From a virus (lineage: Duplodnaviria; Heunggongvirae; Uroviricota; Caudoviricetes), in IMG/VR virus record IMGVR_UViG_3300005688_000042: a DNA stretch of 45,332 bases. The stretch is one strand, 5' to 3'. The stretch's first letter is position 1, and every line of letters begins with the position of its first letter. Positions 14,625 to 35,359 of this stretch are shown here, piece by piece. A program made the translations under genes and the position numbers. The notes under the pieces are model-generated. The model saw only the letters and a list, made by a program, of their open reading frames with translations, was not told the origin of the DNA and did not search any database.

Positions 14625-15029
14625 CAAATTCAATCGGTTATGATATCGCAACCTGAACCGATCCTGAACGACCTGTTCAGGATTTTCTGGGCATAGTCAA
14701 CCGTGACAGCTCCTATTATAGCTGATCGAACCTGAACAGATGCTGAATGATTCTACCTTTTTATAAAGATTTAAAAGAATTTACAATCTGGTGAGGGTTC
14801 AGCATGGCAGCCTGAAGCTGAATAAAAAATTAACGGCATCGTAAATAAGTGAAAAAACGCTTGACGGATATAACATTATAAGGTAAAATGGGTGCGTGGT
14901 CGGGGAGATAGTTCTCCGGTTTGGCCAATGTTGCGAAAAAACAACAGTGTGGTAGAAATACAACAAAAATAGTTCTTGCGTTGTTTTAAAACTGATGTAG
15001 AATACAATACATACACAGGGAGACAAGAA

Positions 15030-15386
15030 ATGAATGCACAACATCTCTTCAACATGAACGCCTTGGAAGAACTGCGTAATGATTATACCAAGCCCATGAC
15101 TCGTGAAGAATTCATTGCATATTGGCTCAACTGCGGCGATGATCCTTATGATATGCCCGCTCTGGAATCCTGCATCGAAGGTATCGGTGAAGGCATCAGC
15201 GAGTTTGGTAGTGAGTGTGCTCTATTCGGTGACGCTGGTCCCGGTTCTCTCTATCGCATTCAACGTAAAATCGAACGCATTCAGGGTGTTGTCCGTCGTT
15301 TGAATGAATTTGGTTGTAATGTTACGATGCCTCAGTTTCGTATCCCGATGCTTGGCGCTCACGCTGCATACGATGATCGTTATTGA
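15030..15386 (+). CDS. hypothetical protein
   Basis: Start moved to MNAQHL; GGGAG RBS. Confidence 0.7.
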   Translation: MNAQHLFNMNALEELRNDYTKPMTREEFIAYWLNCGDDPYDMPALESCIEGIGEGISEFGSECALFGDAGPGSLYRIQRKIERIQGVVRRLNEFGCNVTMPQFRIPMLGAHAAYDDRY

Positions 15387-15440
15387 TTCAGCAACCGTTC
15401 AGCTAATTGTGTTATCATAGCATCAAATCAAGGAATCGGC

Positions 15441-15854
15441 ATGAATCTTCAAATCTCCCCCAACGCAAAGCATTATGGAATCGTCAATGATGGTGATGAA
15501 AATGATCATCTTGTCAAGCGGATTAGTGTTCACAGTTTTGCTCAAATGAAACTGATTCAGGCGTGTAATGATGGTTGGTTTGATGTATCATTGGTGGCAA
15601 TCAAAGATACAAACAATATTGATGCACGTTTTACCAAGAAGAAGGAAATTTTGAAATTCCTGACGTACACGAAAGGGGTGTATGATGATGCTTTTGCCCC
15701 CATTGTCCCACAACCGTTGACCGCGGTCCAATGGTTTGAGCGCGCCCGTGATACACTGCGCCAGCGTTTGAATGAAGAAGAGGACACGGAATTGATGGAT
15801 ATTTTCGATGATATCTGCAATGGTCTTGATGTTCTAGATGGTAAAGTAGTGTGA
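15441..15854 (+). CDS. hypothetical protein
   Basis: Box promoter and AAGGA RBS. Confidence 0.75.
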   Translation: MNLQISPNAKHYGIVNDGDENDHLVKRISVHSFAQMKLIQACNDGWFDVSLVAIKDTNNIDARFTKKKEILKFLTYTKGVYDDAFAPIVPQPLTAVQWFERARDTLRQRLNEEEDTELMDIFDDICNGLDVLDGKVV

Positions 15855-15920
15855 GGATCGATTCAGCTACTGTTCAGGTAACTGGTGTATAATCATTCAT
15901 ACCAACCAAGGACAAACGCG

Positions 15921-16445
15921 ATGACCATCGAATCTGATCTGCGCGCTGCTTTCAATCGTCACATGGACAATGCTTGCCGTCTTTACCCCGCATTCACTGC
16001 AAACCGTCATCGCGTGGTGTTTGAGATTGTGCCAAACATGGGTGGGATCGCCGGTCAAGCACGTGGCTGTTTGCATATCAAGGTGAATCTTACCCTTGCG
16101 CGTCAAAATCCTGACTACATCTGTAACAATACCATCCCCCATGAAATCGCGCATATCATCTGTGCACACTTCGGTTGGGATCGTGGCCATGGCAAGAATT
16201 GGAAACGTGTAGCGGTGTCGCTCGGTTGCACTGGTGAACGATGCTTCAATGCTGCTGAAACTGGTATGACTCCGGTTAAGCTTCGCCAGCGAAATCGCTA
16301 TGAATATGTTGCAAGTTGTGGTACAGTTGTCTGGCTGAGTGATGTGATGCACAATAAGGTGACGAATGGTCAGCAACGTATCCTCGCCAGCACCAAGGGT
16401 CGCATTTCCAAGCATCATTTCACTGGCAAGAGTAAGGTGGCATAA
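15921..16445 (+). CDS. SprT-like zinc metalloprotease
   Basis: 'IPHEIAH..C' HExxH, 'GHGKNWK', C-terminal 'YVASCG'. Confidence 0.85.
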   Translation: MTIESDLRAAFNRHMDNACRLYPAFTANRHRVVFEIVPNMGGIAGQARGCLHIKVNLTLARQNPDYICNNTIPHEIAHIICAHFGWDRGHGKNWKRVAVSLGCTGERCFNAAETGMTPVKLRQRNRYEYVASCGTVVWLSDVMHNKVTNGQQRILASTKGRISKHHFTGKSKVA

Positions 16446-16492
16446 ATAGTTGTTGCAAGCCACTATAGCATCTGCTATAGTGGCTACACACT

Positions 16493-16593
16493 GGGAGAGT
16501 GGCCAAGCGGTAAGGCAGCAGACTTTTTTAACACTTTTTCGAGAGTATTAAAAAATCTGTTCATCGTGGGTTCGAATCCCACCTCTCCCACCA
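16493..16593 (+). tRNA. tRNA-Lys(UUU)-like gene with a 26-nt hairpin inserted in the anticodon loop
   Basis: Intact acceptor (GGGAGAG/CTCTCCC), D- and T-arms, A73, CCA; stem GCAGA/TCTGT encloses 33 nt instead of 7. Confidence 0.8.
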
Positions 16594-16615
16594 TATAACA
16601 TAATAGGATACCATC

Positions 16616-16873
16616 ATGCGCAAACAAGTCTGGTATTTCAAATTCACCCCTACTATTATCGGTCCAGTCATTCACAATGTAAAATGGGCTGGGCGCATGT
16701 ATGATCCCACAAACTTGCCAGATTATGTGCGTGAAGCGCTTGGAATGGGTACGCGCGAGTCTGGTCGTCGAAGGTTGTTTCAGGGTATGGCAATCATAGA
16801 TTGTGAACGCGAATTTAATGAAAGGTTTCCGTATTATTGGCGATGGAATCGCATAGAAATCATTCCTAGTTAA
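16616..16873 (+). CDS. hypothetical protein
   Basis: 85-aa ORF, AGGA RBS. Confidence 0.6.
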   Translation: MRKQVWYFKFTPTIIGPVIHNVKWAGRMYDPTNLPDYVREALGMGTRESGRRRLFQGMAIIDCEREFNERFPYYWRWNRIEIIPS

Positions 16874-16925
16874 GCTACCATTCAGATTATGATGGTATAA
16901 TTGATCCCTCAACAAGGGGACCAAG

Positions 16926-17051
16926 ATGATGACCATCGAATGTACCGATTTTGAAGAATTCCTGAATACAATCAAAGGGTTAGTGATTCGCGGCTTGACA
17001 TTCTCCGCGAATACGAATACAATGAAGATCACACTCACTGGAGGCTACTAA
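16926..17051 (+). CDS. small hypothetical protein
   Basis: Manually read 41-aa ORF MMTIECTDFEEF... behind a box promoter and AAGGGG RBS. Confidence 0.6.
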   Translation: MMTIECTDFEEFLNTIKGLVIRGLTFSANTNTMKITLTGGY

Positions 17052-33401: not shown

Positions 33402-33435
33402 TATAATATCAACCATACCAACAAGGAACAAGTCC

Positions 33436-33750
33436 ATGAAAATCGTCCCGATTCCGCCACGTGCTCCGAACAGCAAGCCCAATGCAACATTCGTCAAACT
33501 TCTGAAAGAAGGATTGGACAAGCTCTGGAACGGACGATCTGGCCAAAAATCCAAGGGTTATAAAAAATTCATTTGTAATACATTCTTTGCAAGGAGCGGA
33601 TGCGGATCACTGGAACTGTTAATTGCAGAACGTCTAGGTGATCACGACACGTTTCAGGATTGGGCAGGGAAGCAAGGACGATTCACCATGATCGAGATTC
33701 AAGATGGCCGTAGACGTTGGATGCTGGACATGATCGAAGAATTCAGCTAA
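33436..33750 (+). CDS. hypothetical protein
   Basis: Start MKIVPI after a CATACCAACAAGGA leader. Confidence 0.65.
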   Translation: MKIVPIPPRAPNSKPNATFVKLLKEGLDKLWNGRSGQKSKGYKKFICNTFFARSGCGSLELLIAERLGDHDTFQDWAGKQGRFTMIEIQDGRRRWMLDMIEEFS

Positions 33751-33791
33751 CGTTCAGGTCGGTGGTGTATGATACATATGTATTCAACATC

Positions 33792-33820
33792 GAAAGAGCC
33801 CTTCAGGGCTCTTTCTTTTT
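33792..33820. terminator. intrinsic terminator
   Basis: GAAAGAGCCC-TTCA-GGGCTCTTTC followed by a T-run. Confidence 0.9.
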
Positions 33821-34024
33821 GTGCCACCACTATCCCCGACCACGCACCCATTTTACTATACCATACCTGAACAGAACCTGAACGATAAGTCATTGATTCT
33901 GTTACAAATAAATGCTTGACAGCGCTATGGGCAAACATTTTGTGAGATGATCGAAATGGTCTATGAGTTGTATTCAGCAACCGTTCAGGTTCATGGCGTA
34001 TAATACAACCCATACCAACGGAGA

Positions 34025-34411
34025 ATGACCATGATCGCTAACAGTCTGGACGTGACTCTCACATGCGAAGGCGTTACCAACATTCTGCGCAATGAGTTCC
34101 CCAATTTCCTGATCGATATCAGCATCGTGAACATCCTCGGGGAGCTTCCCCGTATCATGATCGCGAATGTGCCATCCAAAAAAGATGCGCCATATGGTAT
34201 TCTGGAAAATTGCAGCATCTATTTGAAAGGTCTGATCCAGACTGATCATCGTGGGAAGGCGTACATGGAGAATGGTTTTTATTGTCGTCATATCAAGTTC
34301 CGCAAGATCAGCGGCAAGGATGAAATCGAAGTATTGACCAAGTTTTGCAATTGGATGGTCAAGAACCGTGATATGATTCTGGCTATCGAACCGCGTTTCA
34401 ACAATCAATAA
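34025..34411 (+). CDS. hypothetical protein
   Basis: Box promoter, GGAG RBS. Confidence 0.7.
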   Translation: MTMIANSLDVTLTCEGVTNILRNEFPNFLIDISIVNILGELPRIMIANVPSKKDAPYGILENCSIYLKGLIQTDHRGKAYMENGFYCRHIKFRKISGKDEIEVLTKFCNWMVKNRDMILAIEPRFNNQ

Positions 34412-34421
34412 AGGATAGTAT

Positions 34422-34622
34422 ATGTCTAACCCAAGGGGTTTGTGGAAAACTACCATCGTTGTCTGGTCAGACTTTGACCCCCGTTCAATGGAAAGCTCTG
34501 AATTGGTTCGCGACGGCGAGACTGGTGACAGTTTCATCGATGAGTCCAGCACTGATTTCATCACTGATAAATCCAAGTGGCCCGATACTGATTTTTTTGG
34601 TGATGATGGCGTGCTAGAGTAA
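34422..34622 (+). CDS. hypothetical protein
   Basis: 66-aa ORF, AAGGA RBS. Confidence 0.65.
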   Translation: MSNPRGLWKTTIVVWSDFDPRSMESSELVRDGETGDSFIDESSTDFITDKSKWPDTDFFGDDGVLE

Positions 34623-34802
34623 TTCAGCAACCGTTCAGGTTCATGGCGTATAATACAATCCATACCAACGGAGAATGACCATGATCGCACTTCAGTATCG
34701 CGAAGATTATGCAACGCAGACTCGTGGCGACAATGATTCGGAATATGAAATCTATCGCGCCAATGCGGAAGCGTTGGGGTGGAAGGTGAAGAGCTATGAG
34801 GA

Positions 34803-35063
34803 ATGGCTGAACTCTTAAAGGATCAGGCAGAGTCCTTTGAGACGCTGGTGCAAGATCTGACCGATTGGCTGAATGATGGTGAAAAGATTAGTGAATGGGA
34901 TATTAACATGAGCAATCGAAAGATAGCCGCAAAGCGCATCAAGGAACGTTATGGTCCGTTCGATCTACTGGACGATGATGATTCCGAATATTACGAGGAA
35001 CTAGTGCAGAGTCTAACTGAGTGGCTGGACGATGGGGGAGACCTATACGACTGGCAACCGTGA
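34803..35063 (+). CDS. acidic hypothetical protein with internal repeat (LVQDLTDWLNDG / LVQSLTEWLDDG)
   Basis: GAGGA RBS. Confidence 0.65.
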   Translation: MAELLKDQAESFETLVQDLTDWLNDGEKISEWDINMSNRKIAAKRIKERYGPFDLLDDDDSEYYEELVQSLTEWLDDGGDLYDWQP

Positions 35064-35359
35064 TGCGCCCCGAAAGGGGCAACTACCATCATCCCCGACC
35101 ACGCACCCATTTTATATTACATATCATGAACGAACACTGAATGAAGCGTACCAAAACAATTTGATACGATTACGATTACTGAAATGAACGAACCCTGAAT
35201 GACCTTCAGGGTTCTTCTTTACTTCTGAATTGAATTATATTAAAATGGGCGCGTGGTCGGAGATAGTACATCAGGTCCAACTGATGAAGTTATAGAAACC
35301 ATTCAGATTCCGTTCAGGTTTGTCCTGTATACTACTCGCATACCAACAAGGAACACGCC

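Follow-up and report, generated by a model that had tools for sequence, protein, structure and literature searches.

We describe here a class of phage promoters that carry a tandem direct repeat, RTTCAG-N5-RTTCAG (R, purine), in place of the -35 hexamer, and we weigh which regulator might read it. The promoters are concentrated in a 45,332-nt stretch of viral DNA (the window), which is the reverse strand of positions 60,628-105,959 of G000, a 306,759-bp IMG/VR phage genome with terminal repeats. Judged from their sequence, these promoters are real, conserved and devoid of a -35 element, and the best reading of their form is that they depend on an activator binding in tandem, which we regard as very probable. 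The best single hypothesis for this activator is a host response regulator of the PhoP type, to which we give about an even chance of being right; the phage lineage may tie many of its early genes to a host signalling protein.

Form and conservation of the box promoters

G000 is the genome of an uncultured jumbo phage with homologues of rIIA and rIIB (by PHROGs). Pattern scans of IMG/VR supplied three related genomes, namely G001 (315 kb, terminal repeats), G003 (a 130-kb fragment) and G004 (350 kb); a scan with exact 16-mers gave mainly single chance matches, yet it brought up G001. The core genes of G001 and G000 share ~65-70% nucleotide identity, and G004 is more distant, with 156 of 547 proteins in common. 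The box-bearing stretch of G000 has a guanine-plus-cytosine (GC) content of 44-45%, against a genome mean of ~34%, and each of the four phages has its own GC-rich island (45-50%, against 31-42% in the backbone) that is dense in box promoters:

Window, 14600-36000: box-rich island of G000
G001, 100-130 kb: box-rich island
G003, 45-65 kb: box-rich island
G004, 45-72 kb: box-rich island

The exact repeat TTCAG-N6-TTCAG occurs 23 times in the window, always within 14653-35317, compared with a mean of 0.13 copies (maximum 2) in dinucleotide shuffles of the window; with one mismatch allowed, 41 matches were found where 4.0 were expected. The whole of G000 holds 26 exact copies, comprising these 23 and three more at G000 119.9-121.9 kb. 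A strict composite pattern that joins the boxes to a -10 hexamer (R-TT[CA]A[GT]-N5-R-TT[CA]A[GT], 10-11 nt, TAnnnT) retrieved 27 sites between 13528 and 35333, plus a stray match at 45012, and the total rises to 30 with the units whose boxes start at 23289, 24244 and 24613, in which CATAAT or GATAAT serves as the -10. This agrees with an earlier note on the sequence, which had counted 28 copies followed 10-11 nt later by a -10-like hexamer. The units lie on both strands, and the -10 always stands downstream of the boxes. Composite sites number 35, 44, 30 and 13 in G000, G001, G003 and G004, respectively, and 1, 3, 0 and 0 in the reversed-sequence controls.

The same note had taken the copies as promoters, which applies to most of them. 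The exceptions are a box and a box array without the promoter layout and the exact matches at 27680-27695, 28935-28950 and 35184-35199 (minus strand), which are arms of terminator hairpins followed by TTTACA-17-TAAAAT promoters:

14653-14668: box without a usable -10
23233-23259, minus strand: three tandem boxes at an 11-bp period without a -10, divergent from the ArdC promoter
27686-27710: terminator hairpin with CTGAA...TTCAG
28941-28965: terminator hairpin with CTGAA...TTCAG
35190-35214: terminator hairpin with CTGAA...TTCAG

The anatomy of the element was drawn from a pooled set of 113 sites (226 half-sites) in the early regions of the four phages. A purine that the search pattern did not demand precedes the upstream box in 112 sites and the downstream box in all 113 (225 of 226 half-sites), and the element is therefore written RTTCAG-N5-RTTCAG. 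At the third position of the pentamer, 100 upstream and 111 downstream boxes have C and the others A, with TTAAG as a minor variant of the upstream half-site (13/113); the fifth base is G in 188 half-sites, T in 38 and C in none. The 5-nt spacer between the boxes has a weak bias. A -35 is missing from 110 of the 113 sites, where TTGACA, sought 16-18 bp from the -10, agrees with the sequence at three of six positions at most. The element covers about -39 to -24, and its proximal hexamer ends 10 bp (49 sites) or 11 bp (64 sites) upstream of the -10; the 36 sites with TAAAAT as the -10 all have the 11-bp spacing.

Between the four phages, the inter-box spacer, the box-to--10 spacer and the flanks have diverged, and the boxes, their flanking purines and the -10 have been kept. 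Upstream of GP88 (PF17338), which has box promoters in all four phages, conservation is confined to the two boxes and the -10, which argues that the element is under selection. Boxes also precede rIIA in G000 and, in three of the four phages, the gene of a secreted 172-aa (amino acid) protein, whose leader begins with a G-rich segment. Since rIIA, GP88 and the 172-aa protein gene lie outside the island, the promoter class belongs to the whole phage lineage and not to a single inserted element. This island holds about 30 units of the regulon, and each complete genome of the two closest phages has 35-44.

Alternatively, the repeat could be the footprint of a mobile promoter cassette that was spread by recombination, with the TTCAG repeat itself having no regulatory role. 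PeSL, the mobile early-promoter cassettes of T4-type phages, carry ordinary -35/-10 promoters; they resemble the phage units in giving each small gene of a plastic region its own promoter-plus-leader cassette, and they differ in having no activator boxes. Promoter-plus-leader units do recur near-identically in the window (33972 and 34622; 24244 and 24613), and the islands are mosaics in which shared and unique genes are intermixed. However, a copied cassette is difficult to reconcile with spacers and flanks that have diverged around retained boxes, purines and -10, or with boxes ahead of non-island genes whose leaders are unrelated, and we consider this explanation very improbable. The three hairpins at 27686, 28941 and 35190, with their TTTACA-17-TAAAAT sigma70 promoters, are in themselves PeSL-like hairpin-plus-early-promoter cassettes.

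Candidate regulators of the box promoters

Activators of the OmpR/PhoB family use a direct repeat with an 11-bp period that lies one turn upstream of the -10, and at class II promoters of the PhoP/PhoB type the site replaces the -35 one helical turn upstream of the -10. The phage promoters have this layout throughout: the direct repeats are one helical turn (11 bp) apart at 113 of 113 sites, and the boxes stand in place of the -35, about one turn (10 or 11 bp everywhere) upstream of a sigma70 -10. The half-site is identical to a documented PhoP box, RTTCAG-N5-RTTCAG against the Pseudomonas aeruginosa consensus GTTCAGNNNNNRTTCAG (PMC3156716). The phage element shares its hexamer, its period of 11 bp and its direct orientation with the PhoP promoters of the P. 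aeruginosa oprH-phoPQ regulon; the differences are that the sites are borne by a phage, that each genome of the two closest phages has 35-44 of them where a bacterial regulon has a handful, and that they precede orphan accessory genes, rIIA and small RNAs.

The related P. aeruginosa regulator BqsR recognizes TTAAG-N6-TTAAG, a site that overlaps the -35 of promoters whose transcription starts have been mapped (PMC4358008). The BqsR/CarR (and PmrA) boxes of P. aeruginosa share the tandem pentamer and the 6-nt gap with the phage element, and TTAAG is its upstream variant, but TTCAG, with C at the third position, dominates the phage sites. The CreB cre tag TTCACnnnnnnTTCAC is likewise a pentamer repeat with equal spacing. 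Nevertheless, a CreB-regulated promoter (TTCAC-N6-TTCAC), which the earlier note had brought up for comparison, was ruled out, because the phage fifth base is G or T and never C in 226 half-sites; the PhoP box fits instead. A promoter activated by lambda CII (TTGC-N6-TTGC, 10-bp period) was rejected since both the repeat sequence and the period differ, a CII-family gene (PF05269) not having been searched for. T4 middle promoters also keep the host -10 and replace the -35 with an activator site 11-13 bp upstream, and genes of the rIIB region are among their targets. The T4 MotA box, (a/t)(a/t)(a/t)TGCTT(t/c)A, is centred at -30 and acts with a sigma70 -10 and AsiA; it is unrelated in sequence to tandem RTTCAG, and a MotA/AsiA middle promoter was therefore rejected.

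We propose that the box promoters are host RNA-polymerase (sigma70-type) promoters in which an activator site has replaced the -35. The activator would sit as a head-to-tail dimer on the two RTTCAG hexamers 11 bp apart, and a host PhoP-type (OmpR/PhoB-family) regulator so placed would contact sigma region 4 and recruit the polymerase, as at promoters activated by PhoP, PhoB or BqsR. We infer that a dimeric activator binds the boxes, that it comes from the host and that expression follows its activity. Two findings make a host PhoP-type protein the most likely candidate, namely the match of the site to the PhoP box and the failure to find an OmpR-type gene in the phages: a Trans_reg_C profile had no match at E<=1 in G000, and tblastn searches of the four phages that started from a PhoP-like regulator had no match below E=0.8. 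The earlier note had left the choice between a host OmpR/PhoB-type regulator and a MotA-like second wave. The former is the better supported by the 11-bp tandem repeats, the missing -35 and the failure to find an OmpR-type gene; the latter holds only as an analogy, given that the box is not a MotA box and that neither the MotA C-terminal domain (PF09158, MotCF) nor AsiA (PF09010) was matched in G000 at E<=1, in searches that did not include PF09114, the N-terminal domain of MotA.

Phages commandeer the host polymerase with factors of their own, such as MotA/AsiA or phage sigma factors, and a few carry a handful of host-regulator sites. Known cases of the latter are PhoB boxes in cyanophages and CtrA sites in phages of alphaproteobacteria. 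These cases likewise place phage genes under a host OmpR-family regulator, but they concern a few genes, tied to one physiology, or a lysis-timing switch, whereas here the boxes would form a main promoter class of the island. Tentatively, we suggest that a lytic jumbo-phage lineage has handed a whole transcription class, including an anti-defence-like island, rIIA, GP88 and small RNAs, to a host PhoP-type regulator. If so, the phage would follow a different strategy, with a host response-regulator box as one of its main promoter types. The expression of dozens of its genes would depend on host envelope or cation signalling or on an infection-triggered signal, and accessory and counter-defence genes would be conditional on a host sensory pathway.

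Several hints bear on the identity of the host. By rIIA, the nearest cultured relatives are the Xanthomonas/Stenotrophomonas jumbo phages Xoo-sp13, XacN1 and CM1, at only ~30% identity, and a core winged helix-turn-helix (wHTH) protein likewise points to jumbo phages of Xanthomonas and Stenotrophomonas. Among bacteria, the island RadC has its closest homologues in Lysobacterales metagenome-assembled genomes (MAGs; 63% identity), which agrees with these phage relatives. ArdC, compared with plasmids, reached at most 38% identity in diverse phyla and gave no host hint. In one Lysobacterales MAG, the sole exact box stands 10 bp upstream of TAGGCT and precedes a gene for a glycine-zipper lipoprotein (SlyB-like by eye) beside apparent psp genes. 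In G150, a 4.0-Mb genome of a Lysobacterales-type order (local GC ~45%), there are ten exact boxes, half of them with TAnnnT 10-11 bp away; of these five, three lie wholly between genes, two of them ahead of genes of secreted proteins. One of the five precedes an operon of a small secreted protein, a PhoP-like regulator (best NCBIfam match PhoP, below cut-off) and a probable sensor kinase.

Several observations weigh against a host PhoP-type regulator. The box of the G150 operon lies within the last codons of rpe and is conserved in five genomes; because it overlaps coding sequence, its conservation may reflect coding, and we downgraded the idea of an autoregulated PhoP-like operon. Across 201 genomes of the Lysobacterales-type order, the box occurs 449 times against ~78 in the reversed control, but a second, Enterobacterales-type order gave 157 against ~40, and the bacterial enrichment is thus not specific; as the ratios are similar, it is partly a composition effect, and we do not lean on it; the single loci described above say more. 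The island DNA had no nucleotide match in 20 box-rich bacterial genomes. It would also be unusual for a lytic phage to place 35-44 promoters, that of rIIA included, under a conditionally active regulator, and so many sites on replicating DNA could titrate that regulator. An extended -10 (TGn) occurs at 47 of the 113 sites, which might therefore fire without an activator. Finally, among 2.9 million IMG/VR contigs, more than one match to box-N10-TATAAT was confined to this phage clade, and PA5oct, Xoo-sp13, XacN1 and CM1, cultured jumbo phages of Pseudomonas, Xanthomonas and Stenotrophomonas, have 0-1 boxes each, without enrichment; this distribution would fit a clade-specific phage factor equally well.

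Such a factor would be a phage-encoded activator of unrecognised fold that binds the boxes and drives a second, middle-like wave, as an analogue of T4 MotA or lambda CII, and the likeness to the PhoP box would then reflect convergence or competition with the host regulator. The restriction of the class to one clade and its absence from cultured jumbo phages with related hosts speak for this possibility. So does the size of the class, since 35-44 sites per genome in the two closest phages, serving rIIA and GP88 among others, are typical of phage-controlled programmes, and an unknown DNA binder could hide among the island proteins, most of which have no family match. However, under this reading it would be mere chance that the element is identical to a known host-regulator site in its sequence, spacing, orientation and position, very few early-region proteins are common to all four phages, and no candidate for the binder passed our searches. 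On balance, we regard a phage-encoded activator as less likely than a host regulator but as its main and serious rival. If it existed, it would be a new MotA-like activator in a clade in which neither MotA nor AsiA was detected. Whichever factor reads it, the box can be used to annotate early units, small RNAs and orphan genes of these uncultured 300-kb phages.

The searches for a phage binder covered several families. Full sigma factors were not found in any of the four phages, and Sigma70_r2 gave only a weak match, to a gp55-like protein of G000. A search with Sigma70_r4 led to a small winged-helix protein of the HTH_17/Rv2175c type with a basic AT-hook tail, the only small DNA binder found to be conserved in the four phages:

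G000 170616-170900, minus strand: HTH_17 wHTH protein
L026, 2910-3176, minus strand: HTH_17 wHTH protein
L096, 5979-6299, minus strand: HTH_17 wHTH protein

We set this protein aside as a poor candidate because orthologues (49-57%) are carried by the box-free phages Xoo-sp13, XacN1 and CM1; in addition, its start codon is preceded at ~20 nt by a late-type box, ATAAATA, which suggests a late-type promoter. Pfam and PHROGs searches of ~45 island and neighbouring proteins gave no DNA-binding family except weak helix-turn-helix matches on rIIB, whose homologue (G000 112557-113645; L059, 6558-7646, minus strand) has an extra C-terminal segment at ~300-361. GP88 had no solved relative, no paper on its family was found, and its AlphaFold model was poor (predicted local distance difference test score, pLDDT, 48.5). 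All four phages keep a family of ~260 aa, without a Pfam match, inside or next to the island, and one G001 copy is fused to the VWA protein:

Window, 11716-12498, plus strand: ~260-aa family, beside a VWA gene at 12705-13532
G001, 129903-130601: ~260-aa family
G003, 51044-51781: ~260-aa family
G004, 55076-55801: ~260-aa family

Its AlphaFold model is good (pLDDT 81) but resembles, and only weakly, no structures other than the WYL/Sm-like barrels of PafBC, BrxR, CapW and DriD (Z 6.2-7.3, in the noise range), which, with its presence at all four islands, is a further point in favour of a phage factor. Foldseek returned no PDB match, and one AFDB cluster match (E=2e-7) bears the automatic name 'TldD/PmbA family protein'.

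A different role for the boxes is also conceivable. As operators of a repressor, or as roadblocks, they would shut off or insulate cassettes whose promoters fire through the -10 or extended -10 alone. The TGn motifs, the small-RNA class with its TAAAAT-GGG -10/discriminator and the arrays without a -10 at 23233-23259 and 14653-14668 could be taken in this sense, and P. aeruginosa PhoP can itself repress, namely where its box sits downstream of the -10 (PMC3156716). However, the fixed 10-11 bp to the -10, the constant orientation and the absence of a -35 at 110 of 113 sites are the signature of class II activation, and more than half of the sites have no extended -10 and would be very weak alone. 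We therefore consider repression improbable and retain activation, with the host PhoP-type regulator as its leading candidate.

Transcription units in the window

Most plus-strand units in the window have one or a few small genes downstream. The 30 box promoters are listed below with the box-to--10 spacing (N10 or N11), the -10 hexamer and what lies downstream (ORF, open reading frame):

13528-13561, plus: TTAAG/TTCAT, N11, TATAAT; left edge of the island; downstream ORF 13586-13846 uncertain
14715-14748, minus: N11, TATAAT; without an ORF downstream
15386-15418, plus: N10, TATCAT; 137-aa orphan gene 15441-15854
15861-15893, plus: N10, TATAAT; CATACCAACCAAGG leader; SprT-like gene 15921-16445
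16869-16901, plus: TTAAG variant, N10, TATAAT; small ORFs 16926-17051 and 17053-17346
17382-17415, minus: N11, TAAAAT; predicted short G-rich RNA to a terminator
18923-18956, plus: TTAAG variant, N11, TATCAT; ORFs 18980-19189, 19186-19386 and 19386-19616
19619-19652, plus: N11, TAGAAT; 81-aa gene 19678-19923
19923-19956, plus: N11, TAGAAT; leader as at 19619; without an ORF directly downstream
20484-20516, plus: N10, TATCAT; small leader hairpin; 72-aa gene 20572-20790
21405-21438, minus: N11, TATACT; predicted short transcript ending at terminator 21389-21360
23097-23130, minus: N11, TAAAAT; predicted G-rich RNA; bidirectional terminator shared with the convergent gene 22752-23042
23289-23321, plus: TTCAT/TTCAG, N11, CATAAT; ArdC gene 23353-24243 (ArdcN and MPTase-PolyVal domains)
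24244-24276, plus: N11, GATAAT; 99-aa gene 24309-24608
24613-24645, plus: N11, GATAAT; 67-aa gene 24708-24911
24915-24948, plus: N11, TATACT; small ORFs 24980-25093 and 25098-25238
25360-25392, plus: N10, TAGAAT; 158-aa gene 25423-25899
26297-26330, minus: N11, TAAAAT; predicted G-rich RNA
26374-26406, plus: N10, TAGAAT; very acidic 94-aa protein 26433-26717
26713-26745, plus: TTAAG variant, N10, TATAAT; CCATACCAACCAAGG leader; 78-aa gene 26774-27010
27006-27038, plus: TTAAG variant, N10, TATAAT; target uncertain (ORFs 27192-27383 and 27253-27678)
29334-29366, minus: N10, TATAGT; predicted downstream transcript conserved in G001; no ORF called
29502-29535, plus: N11, TATGAT; six-gene run 29567-31045; inverted repeat around the -10
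31361-31394, plus: TTCAT/TTAAG, N11, TATAAT; genes 31420-31683 and 31698-31985
33741-33773, plus: N10, TATGAT; predicted short transcript into a bidirectional terminator
33850-33883, minus: N11, TAAAAT; predicted G-rich RNA into the terminator of the 33741 unit from the opposite side
33972-34004, plus: N10, TATAAT; CCATACCAACGGAG leader; 126-aa gene 34031-34411
34622-34654, plus: near-duplicate of the 33972 promoter; small ORF 34681-34818
35109-35142, minus: N11, TAAAAT; predicted G-rich RNA
35301-35333, plus: N10, TATACT; basic 96-aa protein 35360-35650

The earlier note had many of the copies followed by a leader with a ribosome-binding site and a single gene. This is borne out in part, as a leader CATACCAAC(C)AAGG/ACGGAG was found at ~8 promoters, and five minus-strand sites drive predicted short G-rich RNAs instead. 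At the SprT-like gene (15861) and at 35301, the G001 orthologues retain the boxes, the -10 and the leader, and the 19619 unit has paralogous promoter-plus-leader units in G000 and G001. Among the products of the six-gene run at 29567-31045 is a 167-aa protein with 95% identity to its G001 counterpart; the ESM Atlas offered nothing usable on it.

The G-rich RNA units number five in the window (17382, 23097, 26297, 33850 and 35109, all on the minus strand) and 35 over the four phages. Their layout is a box promoter with exactly 11-nt spacing, TAAAAT, a G-rich start, a variable part and a terminator. In the consensus of the start, GGGTGCGTGGTCGGGG, G2, G10 and G14 never vary and G7, G9 and G13 hardly do. 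As a rule, a unit faces the 3' end of a convergent gene, and the terminator is often common to both; the same segment also heads the mRNA leader of the secreted 172-aa protein and, in G004, that of GP88. These RNAs have no counterpart in Rfam. The idea that the G-rich RNA pairs as an antisense with the CA-rich leader was tried and rejected (duplex -11.7 kcal/mol, against -11.4 and -12.8 kcal/mol for shuffles). One idea is that the G-rich start is prone to R-loops or G-quadruplexes or serves as a transcriptional insulator.

In a sub-class of the box promoters, a 14-15-bp inverted repeat flanks the -10 on both sides, and the proximal box makes up its outer end:

Window, 24254-24292: inverted repeat around the -10
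Window, 29512-29549: inverted repeat around the -10
G001, ~120481-120518: inverted repeat around the -10

At the 24244 promoter, the inverted repeat is 15 bp long and perfect, with the proximal box within it. An inverted GTTCAG lies just 3' of the -10 in this sub-class, and the arms vary compensatorily between promoters; at the 24613 promoter, the arms are as at 24244 and are split by an inserted small leader hairpin. The inverted repeat may be a second operator or a structure-forming element.

Pfam recognized ArdC (23353-24243), the SprT-like protein (15921-16445) and little else among the island genes, and a nucleotide search of cultured phages with the island gave no match. The set of ArdC, SprT-like protein and RadC recalls plasmid leading regions. 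Several products of the box units in the window are very acidic. Two small proteins are extremely so, both encoded on the plus strand: 26433-26717, with its own box promoter, has 25 aspartate or glutamate residues in 94 aa, and 19186-19386, in the ORF run behind the 18923 promoter, has 18 in 66 aa. They could be DNA mimics.

Ordinary promoters and surroundings of the island

The separate set of consensus -35/17/-10 promoters that the earlier note had described is present as well, with TTGACA-16-TATAAT at 32124 as an example. The island RadC gene and a receiver-like cREC_REC gene have ordinary sigma70-type promoters. The latter gene encodes a stand-alone receiver-like domain (window 18616-18927, plus strand; Pfam cREC_REC, E=8e-24) that is 82% identical in G001, and its promoter is a near-consensus TTGACA-17-TATTAT; host two-component signalling and cyclic-nucleotide defence are candidate roles.

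The box-rich accessory island keeps a GC content of 44-50% in all four phages on backbones of 31-42%, a stable compositional offset. To the left of the island in the window lie a GOLLD RNA (7791-8238, minus strand, 198 bits) and 16 transfer RNA (tRNA) genes (348-10268), and one more tRNA gene, over-long, lies inside the island at 16493-16590. Outside the window, between rIIA and the GP88 operon, an IS607-like pair of a serine recombinase and a TnpB-like protein was recognized by eye from the translations (L059, 10178-11804; G000 ~116.2-117.8 kb).

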